Source of the DNA: Armatimonadota bacterium | GTDB lineage: Bacteria; Armatimonadota; SYMT01 | NCBI GenBank assembly: GCA_046292385.1 | Contig: JBKBRF010000074.1 | Span: 1-20,977, forward strand | Direction: 5' to 3' | DNA length: 20,977 nucleotides | Shown: positions 1 through 20,709 of the stretch, in pieces | Numbering within the stretch: the stretch's first letter is position 1 | Layout of the letters: every line of letters begins with the position of its first letter | The notes under the pieces: generated by a model | Told to the model about the DNA's origin: nothing | What the model saw: the letters and a program-made list of their open reading frames with translations, nothing else | The model's database searches: none | Position numbers and translations under genes: made by a program

Positions 1-1
1 G

Positions 2-88
2 TTTGAAGATGGGAAACGCACCAAGTGCCTGGCGGCGATGAGCCGCGAGCGGGCAGCGGAACGCGAGTGGGAGAAGGTCGCCGCCTGA
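2..88 (+). CDS. Possible 3' end of a gene entering from the left edge (…FEDGKRTKCLAAMSRERAAEREWEKVAA*)
   Basis: Open frame from base 2 to TGA at 86-88, followed by AT-richer non-coding-looking sequence; too short to identify. Confidence 0.3.
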   Translation, partial: FEDGKRTKCLAAMSRERAAEREWEKVAA

Positions 89-297
89 TCCGCTTTTACA
101 CACCTATTGACAAGAGCTCCGGACCACCCGTTATCCATAGGTAACGAAACCGTCTGTTCCTCATCCGGAAGAAGTGAGGTGTGTCCCGTCTCTGGAGTAC
201 GCGGCTCCTTCACATCTTCGTGGGTATAACGGGTTATCCGCTTCTGGGACTCGGAGCGATCAGACTTCGCCATCAAGAACTTCTCCTGCGTTGATCC

Positions 298-3024: not shown

Positions 3025-3053
3025 TGGGTGTTCCGAGCTTTACCGGGCCGTGG

Positions 3054-3224
3054 TCTCTACCGTGACCCCGGACGTTCAAAGCTGCCTGTCGGGGCGGCGG
3101 AATGCTTGGGCCACAAGCGGTTACTTGTACGTCCGCTTGCTTTCTACCTCCGTGGAGATTTCGTGGAGGTGAGTAGGGGCAACGGCGGCTAGTCTCCACA
3201 GTGCAGCGGGGGGCGCGGTAGAGG
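3054..3224 (+). ncRNA. Candidate structured RNA or ssDNA element (multibranch fold with possible loop-loop pairing)
   Basis: Nested inverted repeats 3055-3069/3209-3223, 3070-3079/3125-3134, 3081-3098, 3103-3119, 3137-3182; G-U pairs work on the + strand. Confidence 0.35.
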
Positions 3225-3276
3225 TGGAGCGATGGAGGTGCCCTGGTGCCCGGGAGCCAATCGCCCATGCGTGAGG

Positions 3277-4821
3277 TCAGGTAGCGCGCTTTGGGGCTCG
3301 TGGGGGACAGGTGGGTCGCGGGAGTGTCACGCGGCTGTCGCCGCTCCCGTTTACCGTTACCGCACAGGGTATCCCTGTGACCTCCAGGATCGCTGCAGAG
3401 ACCGGGATCGAGAAGCGGACGCCCCGAGCGTGGAACAGCTCCTCCATCGCTTTGCTGGGGAACTGGAGAGTCAGAGTGTCCTTCTCGAAAGAGTGCGGGA
3501 GTGCGTCAGCCACACAGGCAACCAGTGTTGCTGGGTTCCGGTGGAGGCGCTGCTGCCGCAACTGCTCCAGGATCGCAAGCCAGCGCAGCCGAATGGCGAC
3601 CAGGGCAACGGCATCCGGTCCTCGGAGCCGCTCCGGCATTTCCGCTCCGAGCATTGACGCGTAGAGAGCCCTCACCTCATCCGGCATGTCCGGGATCTCC
3701 AGTCGCTTCCCTTCGCGCATGCTCGCAAAGCTCTCCCGTAGCGTGGAGATCGGCGCGATCCCTTCTCCGAGGTAGGCCAGAAAGCCCCACGCCCACCGCC
3801 GCTGTTTGAAGCGGTAGCGGTCCGCCTGCTCTCTGGTAAGCGTGCCGCGACACCACCCCTCGTGGAGAGCGAGCAGCTCGTCCGTACTGGCTTTGAGGTA
3901 CTCCTCCAGGACTACGCGGTAGTCGTCCGGTCCTTCCTGGGACCAGAGTGAGAGCAGGTCCGGCAGCGACACGTGCGCCAGATGCTGCATCGGAGCGTGC
4001 GAACATTCGGTGTCGGCGTGCAGTCGGGCGGTGCCGTCGGGGAGGAACTCGGTCGGGCCGATGAGCCGGGGAACCGGAGGGCTCGGCGGTGATGGAGGTT
4101 CCGCCTCCATCCGGGCGGATGCGTGCCCCTCTGCAACCGCGATCAACTCCCGCAAGTAGCTAGCCTGTGCCTCGGAGAGCTGCGGGAACAGTCGGGCGAA
4201 CCTCTCGAGCGTTTCATCGCGCGAAGCTCTGCCGACGCCTGCAGCCGCTCCACGCAGCAGCCCCACGGCGAGCCGATCCCAGGCCTCGAAGAAGCCCGCA
4301 CCCCGGAGCGCTCGAATGAGTACGGGGTCCACTTGCCCGAGTACTTGCATCCACTGGCGGAGGAGCTCCTGACCCGCCTCATTTGCATCGGTGGAGTACC
4401 CGCAGCGCGCCGGTACGAGAGAACCGGCCACTCCTGATCGGCGATCTCGAAGGTCGGCGAGGACCAGGGCTCCGACCACGTCGATCACTGCGCCTGCCGC
4501 GAGAGTCTGGCTCCCGACACGAAACTGCGGCGGGGCGTCCCCACATCGAAGCAACGCCAGCAATGCCTCCGCGACAAGCACCTCTCGCTGGGCCGGGGTC
4601 AGTGCGCCAGGGCGGCGATTGCCACGAGGGTCGCGGAGGTGGGGATCGCGGAGGATCGGTTCGAACGGATGAACCAGCTCTTGCTGGACCATCTGCCGCA
4701 AGAAGTCGCAGAGCAGCACCGGCACTGAAACCGTGACCTGCTGCTCGACCGGCAGAGCCGAGTATGCGCCGGGGAGCGAGGATTGCAGGCCACCACGCAG
4801 GCTCCGCAGGAACTTTCGCAT
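3277..4821 (-). CDS. Hypothetical protein (~514 aa); C-terminal ~85 aa resemble the DnaX tau C-terminal / DnaA N-terminal type domain
   Basis: Long ORF; ATG 4821 preceded by AAGGAG. Pro-rich linker (PPSPPSPPVP). C-terminal pattern RWLAILEQL…LPHSFEKDTLTLQFPS…AAILEVTGIPCAVTV. Confidence 0.65.
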   Translation of the reverse strand: MRKFLRSLRGGLQSSLPGAYSALPVEQQVTVSVPVLLCDFLRQMVQQELVHPFEPILRDPHLRDPRGNRRPGALTPAQREVLVAEALLALLRCGDAPPQFRVGSQTLAAGAVIDVVGALVLADLRDRRSGVAGSLVPARCGYSTDANEAGQELLRQWMQVLGQVDPVLIRALRGAGFFEAWDRLAVGLLRGAAAGVGRASRDETLERFARLFPQLSEAQASYLRELIAVAEGHASARMEAEPPSPPSPPVPRLIGPTEFLPDGTARLHADTECSHAPMQHLAHVSLPDLLSLWSQEGPDDYRVVLEEYLKASTDELLALHEGWCRGTLTREQADRYRFKQRRWAWGFLAYLGEGIAPISTLRESFASMREGKRLEIPDMPDEVRALYASMLGAEMPERLRGPDAVALVAIRLRWLAILEQLRQQRLHRNPATLVACVADALPHSFEKDTLTLQFPSKAMEELFHARGVRFSIPVSAAILEVTGIPCAVTVNGSGDSRVTLPRPTCPPRAPKRAT

Positions 4822-4897
4822 GCCAGCTTCATCTCCTTCGGCGCTGCCTAGAGGCAGTAGCACGCGGCGAGCGACCCGGGACCCGGGCTGATGTTCA

Positions 4898-5584
4898 TCA
4901 GTCTTCGAGAAGCTCTCCGATTTCCACCCACTGTCGCCGTCCGACTTGTTCGAGATCCACCACCGAAGCGCGCCACACCGGCTCGTGCTCCCGGAGCATG
5001 CGGGCAGCATCCTGAAGAAAGCGCTGCGCGAGCTTCAGCGTCTCAGGTCTGTCTGGGCCGAGCTCCGACTTCACCCGGACGAACTCGCGGTTCACCAGGA
5101 TGCCGAGGGAACAATCGGTAAAGCGTGCCACGGCACTGAGGATGAACCCGGCCACAGCACCGGGGGTAGCTCCCTGAAAGTGGAGCATCGGCATTACCAC
5201 CGCACCACGCGGGTGAAGGTGTCCCTCGCAGCTCTGCACGGTTGTAAGACCCAGCTCGTTCAGGACCCGCACCAGGGCGGCGATCCGGGGTTCGAGAATC
5301 CCGAGTTGCCAGGCCTCTCCCTCTGGCCCCCGAACGGCATGGGCCAGGTAGGCGTCGGCGAACTCTTCGGGGGTGCAAGACGGACCCGTCGGAGAGAACC
5401 GACCGGCTTCGGGATCCCAGCCCTCCCGTCGATGCAGCGTGTCCAGGATGCGGGTCAGGAAGCTCCGGTTCTCCAGCGGCTCGGAGGAGAGGTCGATGAC
5501 CCCCTCGGCTCCGCCATTGGCGTAGAAGCCGTGATCCTGGAGCAACTCCCGCCATCCGTCCGGCGTCGTTTTGCCACTTCCCAC
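4898..5584 (-). CDS. Hypothetical protein with LEPRIAALVRVLNELGLTTVQSCEGH motif
   Basis: GTG start preceded by GGAGG; protein-like composition; the I-x2-LV-x2-LN-x2-G-x2-T-x2-SC-x-GH pattern is one I recall from phage/mobile-element hypothetical proteins. Confidence 0.75.
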   Translation of the reverse strand: MGSGKTTPDGWRELLQDHGFYANGGAEGVIDLSSEPLENRSFLTRILDTLHRREGWDPEAGRFSPTGPSCTPEEFADAYLAHAVRGPEGEAWQLGILEPRIAALVRVLNELGLTTVQSCEGHLHPRGAVVMPMLHFQGATPGAVAGFILSAVARFTDCSLGILVNREFVRVKSELGPDRPETLKLAQRFLQDAARMLREHEPVWRASVVDLEQVGRRQWVEIGELLED

Positions 5585-5654
5585 ACCCTTGCCTCCGTGC
5601 TGGTGCCCGGTGGTATCCCAGGCAACCTCACTCTTCGTTCACAGGAGATTCCCA

Positions 5655-7190
5655 ATGGACCTGCTCTCTGACTTCCTCGCGGACTTCAAGTCCGCCCGCC
5701 GGGTCGGCACCCCGCTCCTGGCGGTGGTGACCGCCGATCCTGCCGCGACCCAGCGCCTGCTCTCCCAGCAGCTCAAGGAAGGCACCCCGCTCCTCCAGTG
5801 GGACACGGTGGAAGGACTGGGGGCGCTGAATGAGCCGGGACGGGAAGCGCTGCTGCGGCTCTATCCCGATCCCGAGGCTCAGAAGGCCTCCGCCAATCCG
5901 CTCTACGCGCTGCAGGACGTGAAGAAGCTGGAGCCGCACTCCGTCCTCTTCCTGCACAACCTCCACCGGTTTCTGGAGGACCCCGCCGTCTGTCAGGGGC
6001 TCTGGAACCTGCGGGACTGGTTCAAGACGAGCCGCCGGATGGCGGTGGTGCTCTGCCCTTATCTGGAGCTCCCGCCGGAGCTGCAGCAGGACGTGGTCCT
6101 ACTGGAGGAGCCGCTCCCCGGAGACGACCAGCTCACCGGCATCCTGGAACGACAGTACACCGCGCTGCAGGCGAGCGTGGGGGAGAGCGTGCCCGATCCG
6201 GAGCCGGAGCTGCTGCGCCGGGGCGTGGAGCTACTGCGGGGGCTCTCGGCCTACGCGGCGGAGCAGACAACGGCGATGGCGATGACCCCGGAAGGGGTGA
6301 ACCTGGAGAAGCTGGGGAGCTTCAAGCGGCGGCAGATCGAGCAGACCCGGGGACTGACCCTCAACCGGTCCGGGGAGACCTTTGCTGACATCGGGGGTCT
6401 GGAGCAGATCAAGCGAGTCCTCCTGCGGCTTCAGCAGGGTCCGCGCCCGTTCCGAGCGGTGGTGCGGCTGGACGAGATTGAGAAGGCGCTCGCCGGGGCT
6501 TCCGGTCCGCAGGCCGACTCTTCTGGGGTCTCCCAGGACGCACTGCTGATGCTGCTTACTGCCATGGAAGACCACGGCTGGACCGGCATCCTTGCGGTAG
6601 GACATCCCGGCAGCGGGAAGAGCGTGATCTCGAAAGCGGCGGGCAATACCTTTCAGATCCCGACCCTCAACATGGATCTGGGGGGAGCGAAGGGCGGGAT
6701 CGTCGGAGAGAGCGAGGCGCGCATCCGCGCGATGCTGCGGGTGATCCACGGGATCGCCGGAGACGGGGCGCTCTTCCTCGCCACCTGCAACCGGCTGGAA
6801 ACCCTCCCTCCGGAGCTGCGGCGGCGGTTCCGGCTCGGAACGTACTTCTTCGACCTGCCGACCCGGGAGGAGCTGGACACCATCTGGAGCCTCTGCCTGC
6901 GCCAGTTCGAGCTCGACCCGGAGCAGCCCCGGCCCGAGGATACGGACTTCACCGGAGCGGACGTGCGGAACACCTGCGAGCTGGCCTACCTGATGGGCTG
7001 TTCCCTGGTGGAAGCGGCCGAGGCGATCACCCCGACTGCCCGCACCGACATGGAAGCGGTCACCCGGCTCCGTCAGTTGGCGCACGGAAAGTTCCGGTCG
7101 GCGTCCCGTCCTGGGTTCTACCGTTACCAGGAGAAACAGGTCGGGGGTGGAGAGCGGATGCTGGAGTTGGGCACGGGCGAGCGGGTGTAG
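5655..7190 (+). CDS. Ycf46-like AAA+ ATPase with degenerate N-terminal AAA domain and a C-terminal AAA domain with swapped Walker blocks
   Basis: ATG 5655 with AGGAGA RBS. Motifs LFLHNLHRFLED, LPPEL, TFADIGGLEQIK, VVRLDEIEK, GHPGSGKS, IVGESEARIR, LATCN, LPPELRRRF, FFDLP, FTGADV. Confidence 0.9.
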   Translation: MDLLSDFLADFKSARRVGTPLLAVVTADPAATQRLLSQQLKEGTPLLQWDTVEGLGALNEPGREALLRLYPDPEAQKASANPLYALQDVKKLEPHSVLFLHNLHRFLEDPAVCQGLWNLRDWFKTSRRMAVVLCPYLELPPELQQDVVLLEEPLPGDDQLTGILERQYTALQASVGESVPDPEPELLRRGVELLRGLSAYAAEQTTAMAMTPEGVNLEKLGSFKRRQIEQTRGLTLNRSGETFADIGGLEQIKRVLLRLQQGPRPFRAVVRLDEIEKALAGASGPQADSSGVSQDALLMLLTAMEDHGWTGILAVGHPGSGKSVISKAAGNTFQIPTLNMDLGGAKGGIVGESEARIRAMLRVIHGIAGDGALFLATCNRLETLPPELRRRFRLGTYFFDLPTREELDTIWSLCLRQFELDPEQPRPEDTDFTGADVRNTCELAYLMGCSLVEAAEAITPTARTDMEAVTRLRQLAHGKFRSASRPGFYRYQEKQVGGGERMLELGTGERV

Positions 7191-7306
7191 GCGCGGATCG
7201 CCGGCGCGGTATCGGTCCACCGGAGTCGTTCCGTGGATCGGCTATAGAGGACTTGCTGGGAGCCTGGTGAGATCGGGCTCCCGTTTTCACATCTGGGGAG
7301 TAAGCA

Positions 7307-8305
7307 ATGATCGCGACCGACGAGGACGTACTCACTGCGCTGACGGAGCCGCCGTTTCCGGTGGGGGAGGTTCCCGCCGAGCCTGGTGAGTCTGGTACGC
7401 GTGTACCAGATCATGTCATTTCTGATTCGCCGCTTTCTGGGAAGGCGGTCTGCCTGGCGGTGACGATCCGGGCGCTCGGCACCCGGCGCACCGTGGAGAG
7501 CAGCCGGATCGAGACCGACGCGGACCGCTCCCTGGTGCACGTGGGGAAGGAGATCCTGGATTGCCCGGAGGTCGACGCCCTGCGAGGGCAGGAAGGTCGC
7601 ATCCGGAAACATCTGCGGAGGAAAACGGTTCCGTCGCTCGTGTTTCGGCGAGGAGTGACCCTCTGTCCGCTGGCCTCGCTGGATGAGGTGGACGCCACCC
7701 TGTTCGCCTTCCAGCAGGAGCGACGGGAGATGGTCGAAGCGCTGGTGGCCGCGCTTCCTGCCCGGGTCGAGGAGGCGCGAGAGCGGCTGGGGAGTTGGTT
7801 TGATGCGTCGGATTACCCCTCTCCGGAGCGCATCCGGGCGGGGTACGAGCTGGAGTGGAGATACCTGGCGGCGGCAGTACCGGGCTCTCTGAAGACGTTC
7901 CGACGCGACATCTACGAGCGGGAGCAGGAGAAGATCGAGGAACTGTACCGGAAGGAATGGGAGTATGTGCGCCAGTGCCTGCGCCTGGAACTGAACGCTC
8001 TGGTGGAGCACCTGGCCGAACGGCTTACTCCCACGGCCACGGGCGAGAAGAAGGTGTTCAAATCGTCGACCGTGACCGAGCTGCTCGACTGGATCCGGAG
8101 CTTCGACCCGCGTAACCTGACCGACGACCAGGAGCTGGCCGGGACGGTGCAGCGACTGGAGCGACTGCTGCAGGGGATAGACCCGGAGACCCTGCGAAAA
8201 TCTGAGAGCGCCCGAAATCTGATCCGGGGTGGCCTGGACGTGGTGCGAACCAGCCTGACGGCGCAGATCGTCTCCGTAGAACGAGCATACGATTTCGGGG
8301 ACTGA
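7307..8305 (+). CDS. DUF3150-like helical protein of mobile elements
   Basis: ATG 7307 with GGGGAG RBS; helical charged protein with LG-x2-FD-x2-DYP and GEKKVFKSSTV patterns; sits directly after an AAA ATPase. Family assignment is from memory. Confidence 0.65.
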   Translation: MIATDEDVLTALTEPPFPVGEVPAEPGESGTRVPDHVISDSPLSGKAVCLAVTIRALGTRRTVESSRIETDADRSLVHVGKEILDCPEVDALRGQEGRIRKHLRRKTVPSLVFRRGVTLCPLASLDEVDATLFAFQQERREMVEALVAALPARVEEARERLGSWFDASDYPSPERIRAGYELEWRYLAAAVPGSLKTFRRDIYEREQEKIEELYRKEWEYVRQCLRLELNALVEHLAERLTPTATGEKKVFKSSTVTELLDWIRSFDPRNLTDDQELAGTVQRLERLLQGIDPETLRKSESARNLIRGGLDVVRTSLTAQIVSVERAYDFGD

Positions 8306-8329
8306 CGTACCCCACGGCCGTACTTCCGG

Positions 8330-8647
8330 TTACGGAGCCGGATGGAGGAGCGATCGGTCGACAGCGTCTACGTCACCTCCATGGCTGCCATCCAGCAGGT
8401 CCCCGGCATACAGCGCCGCCCCGGGGTGGGGCGGCTTCAGGCGGACTATGGGCGGAGGTACGACTCCGGCGTCATGGGTGAAATCCATCTCCCGTAGCTC
8501 CCAGACCTCGCCGGTCTTCCGGTGCCGGTATTGCGGGTGCTCCGGGTCGAGCCGTCCCGCCAAGACGCGAAGCACCGCGAGAGTGGTGAACGGTGTTTCC
8601 GGTTCCGGGGAGATCACCTCGACGGTCGTGACGTGGTGGGTATTCAT
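8330..8647 (-). CDS. Small hypothetical protein (105 aa)
   Basis: ATG with upstream GAAGGGG; fills the gap between convergent genes without overlap. Confidence 0.55.
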   Translation of the reverse strand: MNTHHVTTVEVISPEPETPFTTLAVLRVLAGRLDPEHPQYRHRKTGEVWELREMDFTHDAGVVPPPIVRLKPPHPGAALYAGDLLDGSHGGDVDAVDRSLLHPAP

Positions 8648-8834
8648 TGCGATGGTGCACCCCTTCTCGGGAGCTATGGCGTGGAATAGCTAATACCGCA
8701 CAGATCACGGAGAGTTATTTCCGTAGCCACGGTGAATTCGTGCCTGGCAGAGGGAGTTAATGCGACACAAATAGATCTGGTTCTTTCTAGATCCGTTAAT
8801 GGCCGCCGCCTCCCTTCTCCCTGGTGCTCCTGGT

Positions 8835-10319
8835 CTATAGGTCCTTCCTCTCCAGTTCGGTCGGGATGCCCTGATCCATCGCCTCTGCTTGTATTTCACG
8901 GCCGATCCTGTGGATCTGACGCTCGCGCTCTGCACGATCGGTACTCCGGAGGATCACCCCATCGTGGAGCCAGGCCAGGATGCGCAGGTCTTTCTCCTCT
9001 CGAATAACGTGCCACAGTTTCCGCATCAGCCGGAGCTCGTAGCTCTGCGTTTGCTGGGAGAGGAGTGAGCGGACCGACCTCTGCGATCGGTTCGGTAGCG
9101 CGATCCACCGGCCGAATGCATCGCGAACCCCATCCTCGGCCCGAACGCGCTGCATGGCCGATTTGCGGGCTTCCAGCAGTTCCTCGATCTGCGGTAGGTG
9201 CTCGAACTCGCGGGCCTTACTCTCTCCGATGCCGGGCTCGGCAGCGGTGCCACACGCCAGGCGCTGGCGGATCTTGCCCATGTTCCCCCCGAACAGGATC
9301 GAATAGATCGAGATCTTCAGGATCGGTTTGCGGTCCGTAACCCCAAGCGCGTCCAACAGGTATTCCCAGATCGACCAGCCCTCACCCAGACGGCGCTGCA
9401 GGTCGGTCAGTCCCCACAGCTTTGAGACGATCGCCAGCTGGCAGGACCGGAGGTCCAGCTGGATCGCTCCCCGGAACAGCATGGCGCGTAGCTCCCGGGG
9501 TAGCTGGTTCACGCTGAGGGTGGCCGGGTAGATCCGTACGGAGTTCTCCACCGGTCGGTAGAGCACGCGGGGGGCCTGGGCGGTGCGCAGCATGATCTGG
9601 GCCGCCAGCTGCAGTCGGCGCCGGTCCCGGTCGGTCTCTCTCGGCATCTGGAGGATCTCCGCTCGCACGGACCCCCAGTTCGCCCGGAGCACCCGGTTGA
9701 ATGCGTGCAGGGGCTGCGCGTTCAGAAACTCCACCAGCTCCCGAGCGGGATGGTCTGTCAGGAGGGGCGCGGCGTCCGCCAACAACTCGTGTTCCCGCGC
9801 GCGCAGTTGGCTGTCCCGGGAACCGGCGGCCATCCGCCTGCCGGTGACCCAATCCACCAGCTCCGTCGGTCTTGTGAACTCCTCCGGGATCTCGTGGGCC
9901 AGGAGGTTCAGCAGCTCGGTGGGAAACTCCGGTTCGACCGTGCGGGCGAGACCTCGCTCGTGGTCGTATGGCCGTTCGTGGAGGGGGAGCACCTGCTCCT
10001 CAAACTCGCGAAGTCGCCGGCCGGAGCGGAAGCCCCCGGAGTGGGGGTGAATGTTCCACATGGCAGCGAGGGTGGCGTGTGGCACGATCAAGCGGCCAGT
10101 CAGCTCCTCCCGGTAGCTGCTAGTGAGGAGATATTGGAGCAGTTGCCGGTTGGCTGTCGCTGGTGGTTCCTCTCCCGCCAGGGCCGGGTAGAGTTGGAGC
10201 ACTCGCTCCCGGGTGGACGGCTGCAGCAGCAGCGGATCGAGCGAGAACGTGGCGGCGGCAACCCTTGCCTGGGCAGGGTCGATGGTGGGGGCATCGGCCC
10301 CCGTCTGCGGGTCGTACAT
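8835..10319 (-). CDS. Compact family-A-like nucleotide polymerase (TV-Pol-like), no recognisable exonuclease domains
   Basis: Motifs in PolA order: VRIYP…VNQLPRELR, motif A IQLDLRSCQLAI, motif B RKPILKISIYSILFGG, DAFGR, QQTQSYE, motif C ILAWLHDGVIL. RBS GAGAGGA. Confidence 0.75.
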   Translation of the reverse strand: MYDPQTGADAPTIDPAQARVAAATFSLDPLLLQPSTRERVLQLYPALAGEEPPATANRQLLQYLLTSSYREELTGRLIVPHATLAAMWNIHPHSGGFRSGRRLREFEEQVLPLHERPYDHERGLARTVEPEFPTELLNLLAHEIPEEFTRPTELVDWVTGRRMAAGSRDSQLRAREHELLADAAPLLTDHPARELVEFLNAQPLHAFNRVLRANWGSVRAEILQMPRETDRDRRRLQLAAQIMLRTAQAPRVLYRPVENSVRIYPATLSVNQLPRELRAMLFRGAIQLDLRSCQLAIVSKLWGLTDLQRRLGEGWSIWEYLLDALGVTDRKPILKISIYSILFGGNMGKIRQRLACGTAAEPGIGESKAREFEHLPQIEELLEARKSAMQRVRAEDGVRDAFGRWIALPNRSQRSVRSLLSQQTQSYELRLMRKLWHVIREEKDLRILAWLHDGVILRSTDRAERERQIHRIGREIQAEAMDQGIPTELERKDL

Positions 10320-10559
10320 CGAGTCATCCTCTCTGGCCGGGTGTCCAGATCGTGCAGCTCTCCCGGCCTCACAAAATCAGGTGGTCAATTCGGGCTGGCG
10401 TGCCTGTAACCGGTACGCTGGTGATTGCGGTTACAGTTGAGCTTGTCCGCCGAGTTCGGGCGGGTGGAATCAGGTAAGATGCTTCGGACGGTGGGAGCGG
10501 AAGTTCCCCCAGTTCTTCGCTTCCTCATTCTTAGAATCAAAAGTTACACGCGGAACATG

Positions 10560-11609
10560 TCATCCTCTCCGCAGCAGCAGGCTCCGCCCAGCCCAGAGTT
10601 CGGACCTGCTCTCCTGTTCGGAGACAAGCTCCCCACCCAGATTTGCGAGCACAACCCCCAGGCAATCCGGGTTCAGGATCCGGAGGTGCTGCGTCGCACC
10701 CGTCTGCTCTTCAAGACCGCGTGATGCGGCATAGCGCATCCTACCGTCTGGCCGCACGGCAGCTGCCTGGAACAGGTTCCGGCGCATGTATCCGGCCAGG
10801 CGCAGGGGGTCGGCCTTCGCAGGATCTCCAGGGTGGATGAACCCCTCGCCCCAGGTCTGCTGGAGTAACTCCTGGTCCAGATCCTCGGCGGTGGCCGCGT
10901 GAATATGCAGCGCGGGTTTCCCTTCCGGACAGGTGCGCTTCTCATGGGGCGCACCAATCGCCAGGTAGGGAACACGCCTCTCCAGGCGGTAGTTCAGTCT
11001 TCTCCAGAACCGGGTCAGATGGTCGGACATTACGTTCCAGTCGGAGACAGGTTCACTGAACGTGAGGGTCCACAGAATGCCCAGGTCATTCGCCAGGATC
11101 TTACGAAAGAGCGTGCCGGCGGCCTTACGATCTCCCTGGTCTCGGTAGGAGTCCCGATCCCGAGTGATAGGCTGTGTACGCGCACGTGGTGTTAGATACC
11201 AGCCCCGGTAACCGTAGTAGACGGAGGTGTAGTTTCCCAGGATGCGGATGCTTACATTACGCCAGTCATCCGCCACGCGAATACGTTCATCCAGATCTGC
11301 GGGAGCTACATTCGTGTCTGGTAACCCGGCTAGTGTCTCGACCAGCTCATCCGTCCCGGTAGGCGGTTCCGGTAGAAGTATTCGGCCTCCAGATTTCGGG
11401 TGAGTCCACCGTAGAGTAGAACCTTTGGAACCAGTCCCATACGTGGGGTACAGGCTCTCGTGATTACGGATTCCCGAATGCGGGCTTCTGTATATTTCGT
11501 CGTAACTCTCCTCACTTATCGAGTAAGGGGAGCTCTCCTCCGCGACTGCAAAGGGGTCGGCTTCCAGCTCGGGGAGCCAGGCGTCATCCAGTAGCTCGGT
11601 CTCGTACAT
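10560..11609 (-). CDS. Rolling-circle replication initiator-like HUH endonuclease
   Basis: Motif I LWTLTF, helix FWRRL, motif II LHIHA, WGEGF, motif III LAGYMRRNL, RY-x2-SRGL. ATG 11609 preceded by GGAGAG. Confidence 0.8.
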   Translation of the reverse strand: MYETELLDDAWLPELEADPFAVAEESSPYSISEESYDEIYRSPHSGIRNHESLYPTYGTGSKGSTLRWTHPKSGGRILLPEPPTGTDELVETLAGLPDTNVAPADLDERIRVADDWRNVSIRILGNYTSVYYGYRGWYLTPRARTQPITRDRDSYRDQGDRKAAGTLFRKILANDLGILWTLTFSEPVSDWNVMSDHLTRFWRRLNYRLERRVPYLAIGAPHEKRTCPEGKPALHIHAATAEDLDQELLQQTWGEGFIHPGDPAKADPLRLAGYMRRNLFQAAAVRPDGRMRYAASRGLEEQTGATQHLRILNPDCLGVVLANLGGELVSEQESRSELWAGRSLLLRRG

Positions 11610-11879
11610 CGCTGCGCTCTCCGGCGGCAACCTCCGTCTCGCAGATCCCGCTCGGGGACCCGATCGACGGAGTAGCCGCCCGGTCGAGGCAGGCACGGCA
11701 GCAGCCCGGCACACGCACGAAGACGAAGCCCCCCTGATCCTGGTCACGCCAGAACACAGGGGACAGGTCTACCCGGGTACAGGGGCGCGACTCCGTGCCG
11801 CTCACCGGAGTTTCGGTGCGGTGAGGGTTGGGGTTACGCGCAGACCCCGGCGGCGCTGCTGCTGCCGTTCCTGCCGGGG

Positions 11880-12056
11880 TTAGGGCGTGGGTGCTCCGAC
11901 GACTCCCGCTGTCAGCCAGCAGGGAGCGGGGCGGGGGAGACTCGCCCGAACGGGGGAGCACCAGTGGCTCCGGGGCGAGAGAGCGGCGCTACTGGGGGCG
12001 CGAAGCGGTGGGAGTGGGCGCGGGCCACCGAGCCCGCAGTTGCATCTCAAATCCAT
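11880..12056 (-). CDS. Possible 58-aa peptide (MDLRCNCGLGGPRPLPP…)
   Basis: ATG at 12056 preceded by AAGAGGA, stop TAA at 11880-11882; co-oriented between xis and rep. Composition is not convincing. Confidence 0.25.
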   Translation of the reverse strand: MDLRCNCGLGGPRPLPPLRAPSSAALSPRSHWCSPVRASLPRPAPCWLTAGVVGAPTP

Positions 12057-12155
12057 TCCAGGTTCCTCTTAGTCCAGGCCAGAGTGTCATTCACCAGTTC
12101 AGAGAGTCAGCGTGTTGAGCCGAGCTGGGCTGCGTGGGTAACCGCTTCGTCGGCA

Positions 12156-12449
12156 CTACCGATCCGTAAGCTGCAGCAGCCGGGCAGTGAGCGCAGTGCG
12201 GGGGATCCGCAGGTGCCGTCCGATGCGGAACGCCGGGATGACCCCCTGCCGGATCGCATCGCGAACCGAGGTCTGCCCGACCTGCAGGAGATCGGCGGCC
12301 TCGCAGACCCGCAGCCACTCAGGCGGGGAAAGGGGCACCGGGGCCGGGGCGGGGTGGTAAGAAGCCGCCCGTCGGCGGCCTCTACAGCGAATCGTCATGA
12401 TCGGGCGTAGTCGTTCGTCCATGGCAGATCTCCGTGGTCTCCATTCCAT
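12156..12449 (-). CDS. Excisionase-family (HTH_17 / MerR-like) DNA-binding protein; start uncertain
   Basis: WLRVCEAADLLQVGQTSVRDAIRQGVIPAFRIGRHLRIPRTAL is a typical Xis winged HTH; divergent from the integrase operon. Confidence 0.85.
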   Translation of the reverse strand: MEWRPRRSAMDERLRPIMTIRCRGRRRAASYHPAPAPVPLSPPEWLRVCEAADLLQVGQTSVRDAIRQGVIPAFRIGRHLRIPRTALTARLLQLTDR

Positions 12450-12564
12450 CGCGTCATCACCGGTTCAGGGAGTCAGATGGGCGCCGGAGTAGTTCAGCCG
12501 GTATCTAGTCGTGCGTCGACTGCAGCACGCCACTGATGGCCTAGTAGAACGCTCCGGGCTCCAC

Positions 12565-12573
12565 TGGTATAAT
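12565..12573 (+). promoter_or_regulatory. Extended -10 promoter (TGGTATAAT) for the Zn-finger/integrase transcript
   Basis: Exact TGnTATAAT in GC-rich DNA, 10 nt before ATG 12584. Confidence 0.6.
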
Positions 12574-12583
12574 GATACACAAC

Positions 12584-13723
12584 ATGAGCGACTACTGTGA
12601 AGCAGGTTCGGAAGAAACACGCCTGGGAGCATCCGGAGATCGGAGAAATGTTCCGATCAGGGCCACCGGAATACCCTGGATGCGCCGCCGGTATAAGGTG
12701 GATGGCCCTTACCTCGTTCCGGTGCCGGAGACAGAGGCGGTGGACTATGTGCCGCTGGCGCACTACCGCGCTCCCGGAGCCGAGGAGCGGTCGCCGTATT
12801 TCGACTTTCTGGAGAGCGACGAGGAACATCTGCCCACGCTGGGGGGCCTGGCGAACCACTGGGGGCCGCTCGGCCTGCTCCAGCGCCAGGTAGTCCAGAT
12901 CCGCTACCTGCTCGGCCCGGAGCATCCGCTCCTCGCGCCGTTCGGCTTGCCGGGTACGCTGGAGGTGACGGATCTACCGCAGGGATTTGAATACGAGCCT
13001 GGGACCTACCGGCTCCGGTTCGGCAAGGGAGCCACACTCCCGGATCAGCTGATACCGGAGATCGAAGAGCGCCTGCGGGAAGCCGGTATCCGCCGCTGGT
13101 TTGATGCGGAAGCGGGGAAGGCGTGGGCGCTGGTGAGCGATCCGGTTACCGGCACGCTGCGAGAGCTACCCCTCTATCGGGTGCTCCGTCCGTACCTGCC
13201 CCAACTCTGGGCAGAGACCGGCAGGGCTCCAGAGGGGGAGGCGCTCCAGGACGGCTGGCGACTCGCTGATCTGGTGTGTGAACCGGTAGCGGAGGTTCAG
13301 CAGGCGCTCCAGGATTTCCGGAATGTCTATGCCGGGGTAGCCGGCTACACCGACGACCGCACCAGGATTTCCGAGGCGCCGGAGGCGCAGTGCCAGCTCA
13401 CTCGTGCCCTCCGGCGGGTGTCCCCCCGGGTGGCGATGATTCCCCCGGTGGACACGGCAACTGGAGACCCGGGCTGGAGGTCGGGCTGGACGACTCCGTC
13501 TCTGCTCGACTCCCTCTACACGATGCTGTGGCTCGACATCAACCGGGGCTACTACGTGCGGATTTGCGGCAATGAGAGCTGCGCGAAGGGGCTGGGACGG
13601 CGCAAGCCCTTCATCACGGATCAGCTGAAAAACCGCTTCTGCTCCACCAAGTGCTACCACGTGCAGCGGCAGCGAGAGTACCGCGAGGAGCAGAAGCAGA
13701 GACGCGCGGCTGCGCCAGACTGA
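12584..13723 (+). CDS. Protein with C-terminal CGNR-type zinc finger, probable element regulator
   Basis: C-terminal ICGNESC…FIT…RFCSTKC followed by basic helix QRQREYRE. Start moved to ATG 12584 because ATG 12572 overlaps the -10 box. Confidence 0.75.
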   Translation: MSDYCEAGSEETRLGASGDRRNVPIRATGIPWMRRRYKVDGPYLVPVPETEAVDYVPLAHYRAPGAEERSPYFDFLESDEEHLPTLGGLANHWGPLGLLQRQVVQIRYLLGPEHPLLAPFGLPGTLEVTDLPQGFEYEPGTYRLRFGKGATLPDQLIPEIEERLREAGIRRWFDAEAGKAWALVSDPVTGTLRELPLYRVLRPYLPQLWAETGRAPEGEALQDGWRLADLVCEPVAEVQQALQDFRNVYAGVAGYTDDRTRISEAPEAQCQLTRALRRVSPRVAMIPPVDTATGDPGWRSGWTTPSLLDSLYTMLWLDINRGYYVRICGNESCAKGLGRRKPFITDQLKNRFCSTKCYHVQRQREYREEQKQRRAAAPD

Positions 13724-13784
13724 GCCGCGAACGGGGATACGGAAGCTGAATTGGGCGAGAGCGACTTTGAATAGGAGAGAGACC

Positions 13785-14963
13785 ATGCGAGGGCATGTAC
13801 GGAAGCGGGCGAAGGGGTCGTGGACGCTGTGGATCGACCTGGGCTACGACGAGACCGGCAAACGTCGCCAGAAGACGTTTACGGTGAAAGGCAACAAGCG
13901 CGAGGCCGAGGCGGAGCTGAACCGGATCCTGAATGAGCTGAACACCGGCGTCTACGTGCAGCCCGCGAAGCTCACAGTGGCGGAGTACCTGGAGCGCTGG
14001 CTCACGGACTACGCCCAGACGAACGTCAGCCCTAAGACGCTCGAAAACTACACGGAGTTCGTGCGCAAACACCTGATCCCCGCGTTCGGCAACCAGTTGC
14101 TGGCGAAGCTGACGCCGCTGCACATCCAGAGCTATTACACGCGGGCGGTGCAGACCGGGAGGCGGGATGGAAAGGGCGGCCTCTCCGCCCGGACGGTCCT
14201 CCATCACCACCGGGTGCTGCGGGAGGCGCTCCAGCAGGCGGTCAAGTGGCAACTACTGGCCCGTAACCCCGCCGACGCTGTGCAGCCACCCCGTCCCGGC
14301 CGAACGGAGCTCGGCGTCCTCACCGTCGACCAGATGCGCACGCTGGTGACAGTCGTCAGGGAGACCCGGCTCTACATCCCGATCTTGCTCGCGGTCTCCA
14401 CCGGGATGCGCCGGGGGGAAATCCTGGGTTTGCGCTGGCGGGACGTGGACCTGGCCGCCGGGGTGATCTCCGTCCGCCAATCGGTTCAGCAGACCCGCTC
14501 CGGCCTTCACTTCAAGGAGCCGAAGACCCAGAAGAGCCGGCGCTCGCTCCTCCTGCCCTCGACGGTAGTGGCGGCCCTAGTTGCTCACAGACAAGCGCAG
14601 GAGCAGATCCGACAGCAAGTTGGCGCTGCCTATGACGACCGGGATCTGGTGGTGGCGGGTCCGGATGGCAAGCCGTTCTCTCCGGCCGCCTTCACCCAGG
14701 CATTCCGGCTGCTCGTGAGCCGCACAGACCTACCCCAGGTCCGGTTCCACGACCTGCGCCACAGCCACGCGACTCGGCTGTTTCAGCAGGGCACCCACCC
14801 TAAGATCGTGAGCGAGAGATTGGGTCACTCGACGGTGGGGATCACTCTTGACGTGTACTCCCACGTCCTCCCCGGAATGCAGAAGGAAGCGGTGCTCCAG
14901 ATCGACGCAGACCTGCGAGAGCCGGAAGCGGCAGACGGGGGCACACTCCCGCCAGACGGCTGA
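13785..14963 (+). CDS. int: Tyrosine recombinase/integrase (ICEBs1/phage-like) with N-terminal arm-binding domain
   Basis: RBS AGGAGA; N-terminal MRGHVRKR…GKRRQKT; catalytic TGMRRGEILGL, PKT, RFHDLRHSHAT, RLGHS, TLDVYSHV. Confidence 0.96.
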   Translation: MRGHVRKRAKGSWTLWIDLGYDETGKRRQKTFTVKGNKREAEAELNRILNELNTGVYVQPAKLTVAEYLERWLTDYAQTNVSPKTLENYTEFVRKHLIPAFGNQLLAKLTPLHIQSYYTRAVQTGRRDGKGGLSARTVLHHHRVLREALQQAVKWQLLARNPADAVQPPRPGRTELGVLTVDQMRTLVTVVRETRLYIPILLAVSTGMRRGEILGLRWRDVDLAAGVISVRQSVQQTRSGLHFKEPKTQKSRRSLLLPSTVVAALVAHRQAQEQIRQQVGAAYDDRDLVVAGPDGKPFSPAAFTQAFRLLVSRTDLPQVRFHDLRHSHATRLFQQGTHPKIVSERLGHSTVGITLDVYSHVLPGMQKEAVLQIDADLREPEAADGGTLPPDG

Positions 14964-15026
14964 GATCTCGGGCAGGTGAACGGAGTGCGGACAGCACGGT
15001 GCGTGCCTGAACCGTGCTTGCAGGCG

Positions 15027-15046
15027 CGTTAGCAATTCGTTAGCAA
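15027..15046. repeat. Tandem CGTTAGCAA x2 (11-bp period), probable integrase arm-type sites
   Basis: Copies at 15027-15035 and 15038-15046, between the int stop and the tRNA 3' end. Confidence 0.6.
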
Positions 15047-15089
15047 AACGTCCGCTCCTCGCGGTTTTCACCGTACGAGGGCGGACGTT
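15047..15089 (-). terminator. Hairpin just downstream of tRNA-Ser
   Basis: AACGTCCGC-TCCTCG…CGAGG-GCGGACGTT inverted repeat, followed on the - strand by a short T run. Confidence 0.55.
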
Positions 15090-15096
15090 CCAGGCA

Positions 15097-15181
15097 CGGA
15101 GGGAGTGGGATTCGAACCCACGGAGACTTGCGCCTCACCTGTTTTCAAGACAGGCTCCTTAAACCACTCGGACATCCCTCC
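15097..15181 (-). tRNA. tRNA-Ser (anticodon TGA), CCA not encoded
   Basis: Acceptor GGAGGGA/TCCCTCC plus discriminator G; D arm CCGAGTGGTTTAAGG; anticodon arm CCTGT-CTTGAAA-ACAGG; long variable arm; T arm GTGGG-TTCGAAT-CCCAC. Confidence 0.97.
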
Positions 15182-15205
15182 CGGTCGCTCTACGGGCAAC
15201 GGCCC

Positions 15206-15234
15206 ATTGTACCGGCGCTCCTGGGGGGCGTCAA
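15206..15234 (-). promoter_or_regulatory. Sigma70-type promoter of tRNA-Ser
   Basis: TTGACG-17 nt-TACAAT, 24 nt upstream of the tRNA. Confidence 0.85.
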
Positions 15235-15320
15235 GAACGCCTCTCCCACGTCCCCAGAGCGGGGGACGAGAACTAGGAGGAGAGATCACCGGCCTGGCGC
15301 CTCGGAGGTGGTCCTGGGCG

Positions 15321-15683
15321 TCAGCGGCTCATCACCCACGGGTCGACCAGCCACACGAGCGTGACGTAGGGGCTGACCAGGCAGAGCCCGATCGCTCCCG
15401 CGAAGGTGCCGGCCAGGGCCAGGCCGTCCTCCTGCCTCGCTCGGGAGCGATGGATCGCCCAGGCACCGGTTCCGAGCGAAAGCGCGCTGAGGACCGGCGG
15501 CGACCAGTAGAAGACGCCGAGGGCGGCTGCTTCGACGAGTTGGCGGTACGGTCCCCCGATCACCGCGCCCTCCGCCGCGAGCTTCAGGAGTATCGCCGCA
15601 GTCCAGAGGGCGACCCCCGCCGCGGCACAAACCACGGAGGTCAACCCCAGGACACGTTCCTTGCCGACGGGTGGTGCGGCCAT
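15321..15683 (-). CDS. Small membrane protein (~120 aa, about 3 hydrophobic segments)
   Basis: Hydrophobic stretches VLGLTSVVCAAAGVALWTAAILL, GVFYWSPPVLSALSLGTGAWAI, LALAGTFAGAIGLCLVSPYVTLVWLV; purine-rich region before ATG 15683. Confidence 0.7.
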   Translation of the reverse strand: MAAPPVGKERVLGLTSVVCAAAGVALWTAAILLKLAAEGAVIGGPYRQLVEAAALGVFYWSPPVLSALSLGTGAWAIHRSRARQEDGLALAGTFAGAIGLCLVSPYVTLVWLVDPWVMSR

Positions 15684-19750: not shown

Positions 19751-20302
19751 TTACTCAGTTCCAGCTTCGCCTTCTCCCTGTTCCGTCGTTGCTTCCGGTT
19801 CCGCTGCGGCCGGGGCGGCTTCCGCTGCCGGAGCTTCCGCCGCCGGAGCTTCCGCTGCCGGAGCTTCCGCTGCCGGGGCTGCTGCTGCCGGCGCGGCTGC
19901 TGCCGCTTCCGCGGCGGCGGCTGCTTCCGCCTCGGCGCGGGCACGGGCTTCCGCCTCTGCCTGCGCGCGGGCTTCCGCGTTCGCCTTCGCCTCCGCCAGC
20001 TCGCGATCTGCCTGCTTGTCGTCCTTGCGGACGCTGAGCTGGCGGATCACGCCGTCGGTGATGCGCAGCACGCGGTTGACTTCGGCCTCGGCTGCGGGCG
20101 CGCCACGGTAGTTCATCACTACGTAGTAGCCTTCGCGGCGGCCCTTGATCTCGTAGGCCAGGCGGCGGCGTTCCCACCGCTCCACATGCTCTACGCTGCC
20201 ACCCTGCTCTTCGACTAGCGTCTGAAAGCGGTTGACCAGCGACCCCTGCTGTTCCTCATCCAGCATCGGGTCGATGATGTACATCAGTTCGTACCGATTC
20301 AT
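19751..20302 (-). CDS. rpsF: 30S ribosomal protein S6 with long Ala/Glu/Pro-rich tail
   Basis: MNRYELMYIIDP, WERRRLAYEI, EGYY; RBS GGAGGTG; first gene of rpsF-ssb-rpsR. Confidence 0.97.
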   Translation of the reverse strand: MNRYELMYIIDPMLDEEQQGSLVNRFQTLVEEQGGSVEHVERWERRRLAYEIKGRREGYYVVMNYRGAPAAEAEVNRVLRITDGVIRQLSVRKDDKQADRELAEAKANAEARAQAEAEARARAEAEAAAAAEAAAAAPAAAAPAAEAPAAEAPAAEAPAAEAAPAAAEPEATTEQGEGEAGTE

Positions 20303-20310
20303 GGTTCTCA

Positions 20311-20363
20311 CCTCCCTTCGGACACCCAGGATTGGGCAGCCCCGGTACGAGCGGGGCAGGGAC
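20311..20363 (-). promoter_or_regulatory. S6:S18-type ribosomal protein leader RNA
   Basis: TCCCT pairs with AGGGA of the RBS, enclosing hairpins GCCCC/GGGGC and TGCCCA/TGGGTG, with an unpaired CCG just before the RBS strand, as in the known S6:S18 motif. Confidence 0.65.
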
Positions 20364-20465
20364 CGGCGCCGTCCGGGGGCGCAGCGCGCCGCCAGGCTGC
20401 GGACCTTGAGGAAGTCCGCGGACCGCGCAGGCGCAGAGCCCACGCGGAAGGCGTCGGATCGACCG

Positions 20466-20494
20466 ATTATAGCAGCCCCCCGCGCCGGGAGCAA
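20466..20494 (-). promoter_or_regulatory. Sigma70-type promoter of the rpsF operon
   Basis: TTGCTC-17 nt-TATAAT with extended TG (TGCTATAAT). Confidence 0.8.
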
Positions 20495-20542
20495 TGCGAG
20501 AGGCGCGAAAGATCGCGTGGAAGGTGGGGGCCGAGCGTACGG

Positions 20543-20709
20543 CATTCTCGCGTCCAGCCCTTAGTCCAGGCGCAGCCCCCAATACTACTCATCTCAAGAA
20601 TCATGTCGAGCAGCGTAGACGCTTACTCGGGAGTGATCCTCAGAAGCCCGGAAGCGCTGCCGCAGGCAGGGCTGAAGGGTTTCACTTGTGACCACCCCTG
20701 GCGAGATGC
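20543..20709. ncRNA. Candidate rod-like ncRNA with central bubble (6S-like architecture)
   Basis: Nested pairings GCCCTT/AAGGGT, AGTCC/GGGCT, GCAGC/GCTGC, ATCA/TGAT, CGAG/CTCG, AGCG-taga-CGCT around an unpaired CCCCAATACTACTCA stretch. Confidence 0.3.

Follow-up and report, generated by a model that had tools for sequence, protein, structure and literature searches.

The stretch of DNA analysed here (the window) is the whole of contig C74, 20,977 nucleotides long, of a 7.04-Mb genome of an Armatimonadota bacterium (G000) in 91 contigs, and it holds one end of a mosaic mobile island that lies in the 3' part of a tRNA-Ser(tga) gene. The core of this island is made up of a tyrosine integrase, an excisionase-like helix-turn-helix (HTH) protein, a small HUH rolling-circle replication initiator (Rep) and a 494-aa protein related to family-A DNA polymerases, referred to below as a TV-Pol-type enzyme (Table 1). 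The GC content of the window ranges from ~0.59 to 0.71, and the host is an uncultured high-GC bacterium. An earlier interpretation made from the letters (the sequence-only reading) had listed genes for an excisionase, an HUH Rep, a PolA-like protein, a zinc-finger protein, an integrase and a UvrD helicase beside the tRNA-Ser, and scans for open reading frames (ORFs), protein families and tRNAs found each of them where it had been placed. Capsid, portal and conjugation families, none of which the same reading had seen in the island, gave no match among the 15 island proteins in Pfam and PHROGs scans, and these proteins show no sign of virion or type IV secretion genes of a known phage or conjugative class. 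The family B polymerase domain that marks pipolins is absent from the 21 window proteins according to Pfam, Rfam recognised only the tRNA in the window, and a promoter and terminator scan gave nothing useful in the island core.

Table 1. Features of the window, with positions on the 20,977-nt contig
Feature	Positions	Strand	Remarks
Multicopy insertion sequence (IS) end, assembly break	1-119		Island runs on past the IS
UvrD-type superfamily 1 (SF1) helicase fused to PD-(D/E)XK nuclease, 908 aa	298-3024	-	Island cargo; PF00580 (4.1e-56), PF13361 (9.5e-35), PF12705 (1.7e-23)
Orphan protein, 577 aa	3277-5010	-	Upstream of, and on the same strand as, the helicase-nuclease gene; weak sub-threshold DnaX_C match only (1.6e-4)
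AAA ATPase, 539 aa	5571-7190	+	PF00004 (2.5e-12); phrog_8638 (2.7e-36), function unknown
Orphan gene, 332 aa	7307-8305	+	3' of the AAA ATPase gene
ORF, 105 aa	8330-8647	-	Downstream of the polymerase gene; from the ORF listing
TV-Pol-type protein, 494 aa	8835-10319	-	Winged-helix-like N-terminal domain (~49-133) and minimal family-A core (173-494), as modelled
Perfect 9-bp inverted repeat, 15-nt loop	10404-10436		Inside the 240-bp spacer between the Rep and polymerase genes; candidate origin hairpin
Small HUH rolling-circle Rep, 238 aa on record	10560-11276	-	Frame open up to 11747
Excisionase-like HTH_17 protein	12156-12449	-	PF12728 (4.6e-13); TIGR01764 (1.3e-11)
383-aa protein with C-terminal Cys4 zinc-ribbon-like stretch	12572-13723	+	Upstream of the integrase gene; CxxxxC...CxxxC in the translation
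Tyrosine integrase	13767-14963	+	PF00589 (7.2e-27), PF14659 (3.5e-15); phrog_1 (3.5e-83)
Attachment site (att) repeat, 3' part of tRNA-Ser	15093-15156		Second copy at C79:2521-2584
tRNA-Ser(tga), integration target	15097-15181	-	ARAGORN; Rfam RF00005 (60 bits)

The ends of the island agree with the proposal that it is a tRNA-integrated mobile element. No second copy of the tRNA/att repeat lies inside the window, but a search of the whole genome located one on contig C79, where 64 nt are 97% identical to the att repeat of the window. ARAGORN finds no tRNA on C79, and the orientation of the repeat suggests that C79:1-2520 is island DNA and that the remaining part of this contig is chromosome; the ORFs within C79:98-2385 have no match in Pfam. 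Six other contig ends of the genome have a stretch identical to the initial 119-121 nt of the window, and the first 121 nt of C79 are a different shared repeat end, which C79 bears inverted at both of its ends; each of the two repeats is present at seven contig ends in total. No contig with the interior of an IS was found. In the run that is the likely source of the assembly (X1) the unitig over positions 1-119 has a depth of 535 vs 63 for the island unitig (92-15122), which, together with the shared contig ends, indicates that a multicopy IS within the island broke the assembly. A single IS copy probably bridges C74 and C79, in which case the island would be at least ~17.5 kb long.

The unitigs of the same run also break at 15121/15122, and the island unitig is somewhat deeper than the two flanking unitigs (63 vs 50.6 and 47.4), which could reflect extra copies of the island, contig depth being a poor measure of copy number. 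Three soil metagenomes of another study (runs X2-X4) contain the chromosomal flank at ~100% identity together with 90-97% identical pieces of the regions of the AAA ATPase, the polymerase, the Rep frame, the 383-aa protein and the integrase, at 2-5 fold coverage, a pattern that fits a mobile and diverging island. One 551-nt soil contig is exact over 15093-15539 and continues beyond 15093, the att boundary, with 104 letters unlike the window; this contig may represent an empty or differently occupied site. Four candidates for junctions, three in X1 and one in X4, were dismissed because their sides measured only 20-22 letters. Among the sequencing runs listed as containing the sequence, none is an RNA data set. 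In a comparison for empty sites with 20 relatives, none of them of the same genus, the chromosomal flank gene proved to be multicopy.

The 494-aa protein is missed by Pfam, NCBIfam, PHROGs and PADLOC, and it gives no match to PF00476 (DNA_pol_A) at E <= 0.01; one of its homologs (L016) scores 22 bits on this model, the cut-off of which is 34.3. Nevertheless, the PolA-like assignment of the sequence-only reading is borne out by profile, fold and profile-profile comparisons. A word-based search returned 14 relatives, all unnamed, and an exhaustive profile search returned 1,755 cluster representatives (50% identity) at E <= 1e-3, 990 of them at <= 1e-30, nearly all full-length. When a profile of 14 homologs was compared with the PDB, all 12 rows were Taq Pol I, at a best E of 0.007, and the alignment brought motifs A, B and C into register. 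The AlphaFold (AF2) model of the protein has a mean predicted local distance difference test score (pLDDT) of 89.2, every match listed by Foldseek for this model is a family-A polymerase (best E 5e-8), and VIA-align superposes model residues 174-494 on Bst Pol I with a Z of 18.8 and a root-mean-square deviation of 3.7 over 299 residues. In hhalign, a 98-member alignment of the family matched the host Pol I domains of four genes from the same phylum (97.3%, E 2.4e-11, 234 columns), and when whole genomes are searched the family profile also picks up the host Pol I genes, at 1e-6 to 1e-9.

The hhalign comparison places key residues of the protein on known positions of Pol I: R262 falls on the Arg of TGRLSS, R278 on the R of RxxF, D289 on the Asp of motif A (DYSQIELR), K331, K335, Y339 and F343 on RxxxKxxx(F/Y)xxxY, Q425 on the Gln of QG, and H452 and D453 on the H and D of HDE. 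All 98 sequences have five of these without exception (R262, R278, D289, K335 and D453), and K331 is kept in at least 90% of them, the fingers motif being K331xxxK335; at this motif HMMER aligns Taq with an offset of four residues relative to hhalign. Both catalytic Asp residues and the Lys and Tyr of the O-helix are thus retained. No nuclease family was detected in the protein by Pfam. As modelled, the protein consists of a winged-helix-like N-terminal domain followed by a minimal family-A polymerase, in which the thumb, palm and fingers are present and exonuclease domains are lacking. The N-terminal domain (residues ~30-172) is separate from the core and, modelled alone over residues 1-172, reaches a pLDDT of 87.5; among the top-ranked structures that residues 49-133 resemble are the winged-helix domains of NiaR, the plasmid initiator RepE, CtsR and CRP-family regulators, with a modest best Z of 7.6, and we regard this domain as a putative DNA-binding head, a lead at the level of the fold. 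Tblastn with the 494-aa protein found no match in 50,697 phage records and a single one in 72,556 plasmids, a "hypothetical protein" of a Deinococcus megaplasmid.

These properties recall the Transposon-Virus polymerases (TV-Pols), which were described as 400-600-aa minimal family-A relatives without a nuclease domain, a subset of which has an extra N-terminal globular domain predicted to be all-helical (Iyer, Abhiman & Aravind 2008, Biol Direct 3:39, PMC2579912). The same paper places TV-Pol genes next to genes for a resolvase, a lambda-type integrase or a transposase, at hot spots that also hold restriction-modification genes, and predicts their products to be primase-polymerases of replicative mobile elements. 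The window protein shares with them the thumb, the hairpin ahead of the palm with its conserved Arg (R262), the palm with two metal-binding Asp residues (D289 and D453), the fingers with the basic-xxx-K form of the RxxxK motif (here K331xxxK335), the lack of an exonuclease or any other nuclease domain, the presence of an N-terminal domain ahead of the core and a setting close to integrases or resolvases, on islands with many restriction-modification genes; a recombinase is near the polymerase gene in the window, in 12 of 25 related loci and in the two closer relatives described below (C7 and G006). It differs from them in that its modelled N-terminal domain combines helices and strands in a winged-helix-like arrangement instead of being all-helical, in the KxxxK of its fingers compared with the RxxxK of the family, in a host phylum outside the 2008 list, and in the adjacent HUH Rep, a neighbour that the paper does not describe. 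Sequence gave no link to a named member, and the label TV-Pol-type is therefore used. The sequence-only reading knew of no named class of element with this combination of genes; for the polymerase such elements are already on record in the 2008 description.

To define what accompanies these polymerases, 39 loci with relatives of the window protein were compared (12 from genomes, 26 from metagenomes and one viral). Tblastn with 14 window proteins detected the polymerase at 39 of 39 loci and the integrase at seven, and no other window protein at any of the 39. Neighbours were compared at 27 loci, after four near-duplicates (L019, L030, L032 and L033) and eight contigs shorter than 5 kb (L010, L022, L024, L028, L029, L038, L040 and L041) had been set aside, and in an all-against-all comparison of neighbour ORFs only two families were present in more than three loci, namely the polymerase, which 27 loci share with the window, and tyrosine integrases, which five loci share with it. 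A Pfam scan of the 350 ORFs within 7 kb at 25 loci (L031 and L034 being omitted as near-duplicates of L039 and L035) found recombinases in L012, L013, L015, L016, L018, L039, L043, L044, L047 and L048, to which the tblastn matches of the integrase add L020 and L027, so that a tyrosine or serine recombinase lies within 10 kb of the polymerase in 12 of the 25 dereplicated loci. The same neighbourhoods carry conflict genes, among them restriction-modification, Shedu, AbiJ, DUF4007/PAPS-reductase and ArdC; restriction-modification or other defence genes are found in L013, L014, L015, L017, L018, L025, L044, L045 and L048, and phage genes in L036, L037 and L043. Neither an HUH Rep nor a D5-type helicase was recognised by Pfam among the 350 ORFs. 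The recurring core is the polymerase together with a site-specific recombinase.

Closer relatives of the island are found in the host genome itself and in a genome of the same family. A second copy of the polymerase, 37% identical, is encoded at C7:757-2157 in an island (L076, C7:757-12141) that also encodes a 1387-aa protein joining a PD-(D/E)XK nuclease to an SF1 helicase, a ParB-like protein and, next to tRNA-Gly(ccc), a tyrosine integrase; the IS that interrupts the window island also cuts the far end of this one. In the same-family genome G006 (contig C362, L077:8406-13541) exact 47-bp repeats of the 3' half of a tRNA-Gly gene enclose an element of 5,089 bp, which encodes a tyrosine integrase, a 499-aa homolog of the TV-Pol-type protein, two ORFs of 116 and 329 aa and nothing more. 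This is a natural minimal element of integrase and polymerase. The window Rep is encoded neither on the C7 island nor in the 5,089-bp element. Of 151 sampled genomes of the phylum, 14 had a match at 1e-5; four of these are host Pol I genes, leaving ten.

Biochemical information on enzymes of this kind comes from staphylococcal cassettes, where the SCCmec polymerase CCPol and its small partner MP have been proven to act as a primase and cooperate with the Cch2 helicase (Bebel et al. 2020, PMC7581432), and CCPol-MP is the one relative for which primase activity was shown. Both CCPol and the window protein are truncated family-A polymerases on site-specifically integrating islands with conflict genes as cargo. 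CCPol is near Pol I in sequence and retains part of the exonuclease domain, in contrast to the window protein with its lack of a Pfam DNA_pol_A match and its winged-helix-like N-terminal domain as modelled; moreover, CCPol needs the small OB-fold protein MP and its gene shares an operon with that of a D5-type or DUF927 helicase. [quoted passage not shown] (2023) distinguished 19 PolA clusters in addition to the CCPols, and Timinskas et al. (2026) described PolA1-3 and a PolA1-like group in a section that does not mention the window family.

The frequent company of defence genes raises the question of whether the polymerase-like protein serves replication at all, and a role in defence or anti-defence, for example through products made on invading nucleic acid, would agree with the lack of a conserved replication partner and with changed residues at two carboxylate positions. 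No PADLOC model matched the protein, however, and integrative islands ordinarily carry defence genes such as the restriction-modification, Shedu, AbiJ, DUF4007/PAPS-reductase and ArdC genes seen here. The relative that has been assayed acts as a primase (PMC7581432), and in the 5.1-kb element the polymerase gene is the only large gene besides the integrase, which fits a core function in maintenance. We consider this explanation highly unlikely, and the least probable of those weighed here.

The Rep gene was accepted as that of a small HUH Rep on the combined evidence of profiles and structure. PF23343 (REP_ORF2-G2P) matches it with 22.1 bits (1.9e-4), below the cut-off of 27.8 bits, and in PHROGs it matches phrog_3584 ("replication initiation protein", 4.9e-11) and phrog_3419 ("rolling circle DNA replication initiation", 7.3e-6). 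The translation contains HIH and GYMRRN, with WTLTF ahead of them, and we take HIH and GYMRRN to be the metal-binding HUH and catalytic Tyr motifs of the superfamily. In the ESM Atlas 23 of the 30 clusters nearest to the protein carry PF23343, and in the best structural neighbour (TM-score 0.80) every member of the cluster has PF23343 and 23% have RepSA. A word-based search found no relative beyond its own record, and no relative in the PDB was found by sequence. The Rep and polymerase genes are adjacent, co-oriented, 240 bp apart and both intact, and the pattern of a 9-bp inverted repeat with a 15-nt loop that lies in their spacer was present in none of 100 shuffles of it. An exact 11-nt direct repeat (GAGAGGATGAC, minus strand) was also noted at 10323-10333 and 10559-10569, one copy of which spans the Rep stop codon and the second of which lies just ahead of the polymerase start codon; it may be due to chance or be a shared ribosome-binding stretch.

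Small tRNA-integrated HUH-Rep islands likewise bring together, at the 3' end of a tRNA gene, the genes for an integrase, for an excisionase-like HTH protein and for a small HUH Rep, and to our knowledge no such island carries its own polymerase. Pipolins, in turn, are integrative, often at tRNA genes, and encode a tyrosine recombinase and their own polymerase (piPolB), which is primer-independent (PMC10061031); their polymerase belongs to family B, whereas that of the window island is family-A-like. A search of full texts retrieved no paper that pairs a TV-Pol or another A-family polymerase with an HUH Rep in an integrative element.

Further genes of the island include two divergent pairs. The 577-aa orphan and the 908-aa UvrD/PD-(D/E)XK genes are a co-oriented pair (298-5010, minus strand); the orphan has no match in NCBIfam, PHROGs or PADLOC, the helicase-nuclease also matches the PADLOC models of GajB (Gabija) and of the DRT helicase at 1e-60, and no GajA-like partner was found for it. 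This pair may be an undescribed two-gene conflict system. Divergent from it runs the pair of the AAA ATPase and the 332-aa orphan (5571-8305, plus strand). Near the integrase gene, residues 305-377 of the 383-aa protein are matched by phrog_30403 at 4.4e-5. The 105-aa ORF downstream of the polymerase gene showed no similarity to other small ORFs flanking the related polymerases in a comparison limited to sequence. Outside the island, the gene for ribosomal protein S6 (264 aa, 19751-20545, minus strand) has its S6 domain at residues 84-173, and its C-terminal part derives from 15-nt tandem units (repeats at 19788-19934), which give the protein a repetitive, low-complexity tail.

Taken together, the window seems best explained as part of a mosaic, IS-interrupted island in tRNA-Ser(tga), in which the TV-Pol-type enzyme serves as the primase or primase-polymerase of the island and the Rep is a lineage-specific addition, an interpretation that we hold to be probable, if only just. 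In this scheme Int and Xis would excise the island, and the TV-Pol-type enzyme would then start DNA synthesis on the excised element at an initiation site read by its N-terminal domain. A function as primase is suggested by the genomic contexts of the family, by the 5.1-kb element of integrase and polymerase, and by CCPol-MP. In the window island only, the Rep would add a rolling-circle route, in which it nicks the DNA, the host replisome extends from the nick and the TV-Pol-type enzyme primes the displaced single strand. That the polymerase would prime the second strand, as one version of the sequence-only reading had it, is plausible. The coupling of Rep and polymerase would be the weakest step, and the spacer hairpin is a candidate site for it.

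Several observations weigh against this interpretation. In nearly all members of the family Q294 replaces the Glu of motif A (QIELR), which in Pol I helps to exclude ribonucleotides, and G454 replaces the Glu of HDE, and with these two carboxylates replaced the enzyme may differ from Pol I in substrate choice or activity. At least five of the ten copies in the phylum look split or broken, and in view of these and of the IS invasion the copy in the window island may be inactive. The single-stranded DNA fold of the whole Rep-polymerase spacer is no better than that of shuffles (z -0.26 and 0.60), leaving the hairpin as a candidate origin only. Sequence comparison gave no link to a named TV-Pol, and the record of the Microcystis phage Ma-LMM01 returned nothing with profiles A1 and A2, a result that is uninformative as the first look passed no candidate. 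The sole assayed relative, CCPol-MP, requires a small partner and comes with a D5-type helicase, neither of which was found here: D5-type (COG3378) and DUF927 helicases are absent among the 21 window proteins and the 350 neighbour ORFs of 25 loci, and a search for an MP-like partner by phmmer, all against all at E <= 1, gave no pair among 26 small ORFs that flank the polymerase gene in the window and at 16 loci, many of which look like wrong-frame ORFs of GC-rich DNA. Polymerase or primase activity in this subfamily is a prediction.

The Rep itself does not recur with the polymerase, which also counts against a functional link between the two. Tblastn with the window Rep was negative at all 39 related loci, and four further loci gave no Rep match either. 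Given that the window Rep is itself below the Pfam threshold, PHROGs was also run on the neighbours, covering 150 of the 187 ORFs within 3.5 kb at 18 loci (L011, L014, L021, L026, L036, L039 and three ORFs of L042 were dropped), and a rolling-circle PHROG was found in none of the 150. Some relatives have a different initiator-like or helicase gene nearby: in L023, which of the relatives with flanks is the closest, an O-like/DnaD-like initiator is encoded at a distance of 0.8 kb, and L025 has a helicase. The linkage of Rep, polymerase and integrase that the sequence-only reading had expected to recur is hence confirmed for polymerase and recombinase and fails for Rep and polymerase, whose pairing is lineage-specific and no defining feature of a class of elements.

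Rep and the TV-Pol-type enzyme could be independent modules joined by island recombination: each might work alone, one of them might be redundant or decaying, or the Rep might be used for nicking or mobilisation and not for vegetative replication. Elements of integrase and polymerase without a Rep do occur as small tRNA-integrated islands, the IS invasion and the varied cargo speak for a composite history, and the Rep is odd and isolated in that the word-based search found no relative of it. On the other hand, only 240 bp separate the two co-oriented and intact genes, and ~90-94% identical pieces of both are present in the soil runs, where they may travel together. Such an uncoupled arrangement is in our view unlikely, but it deserves to be kept in mind.

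The sequence-only reading had gone further and proposed a distinct class of PolA-based self-synthesizing integrative elements, similar to pipolins, in which the nick made by Rep supplies a 3'-OH, the UvrD-nuclease unwinds the DNA and the island polymerase, not the host replisome, copies the element. The adjacent and co-oriented genes for Xis, Rep and polymerase, the catalytic residues kept in the latter, and the SF1 helicase-nuclease of the window island, which has a parallel in the SF1 helicase with PD-(D/E)XK domain on the C7 island, are all in line with this idea, and the greater depth of the island unitig relative to its flanks (63 vs 50.6 and 47.4) is a weak hint in the same direction. 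However, the linkage of Rep and polymerase is non-recurrent, no helicase family recurs near the polymerase, the minimal relatives consist of integrase and polymerase only, and the very small core of the enzyme has no exonuclease domain and no processivity partner that we could see. Nothing links the UvrD-nuclease to replication, and it matches helicase models of defence systems equally well. We therefore judge a self-synthesizing class to be quite improbable: the polymerase is of a kind already described, though poorly studied, the Rep is a local addition, and the window locus defines no new class of element.

The importance of the locus lies instead in what it adds to a very large family of TV-Pol-type proteins, with 1,755 representatives, of which the window member escapes four standard libraries and only one distant relative has been assayed. 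It provides a well-modelled member in which every key polymerase residue is mapped on Pol I, and it extends the family to hosts beyond the phyla listed in 2008. A narrower version of self-synthesis, namely a two-enzyme system built in this lineage and so far without a counterpart elsewhere, in which the HUH Rep opens the circle and the winged-helix-PolA protein carries out or primes all later synthesis with little help from the host replisome, appears very unlikely to us; if true, it would be a family-A counterpart of pipolins and casposons, and the near-invariant Gln at the position of the sugar-selecting Glu would allow chains to be started with ribonucleotides. For the preferred interpretation, that of an island primase or primase-polymerase joined by a lineage-specific Rep, three designs are now at hand for comparison, namely the 5.1-kb element of integrase and polymerase, the second island of the same genome and the window island with its added Rep, and they bear on whether these enzymes are primases, on what the N-terminal domain targets, and on whether such a polymerase can be placed in the service of a rolling-circle replicon.

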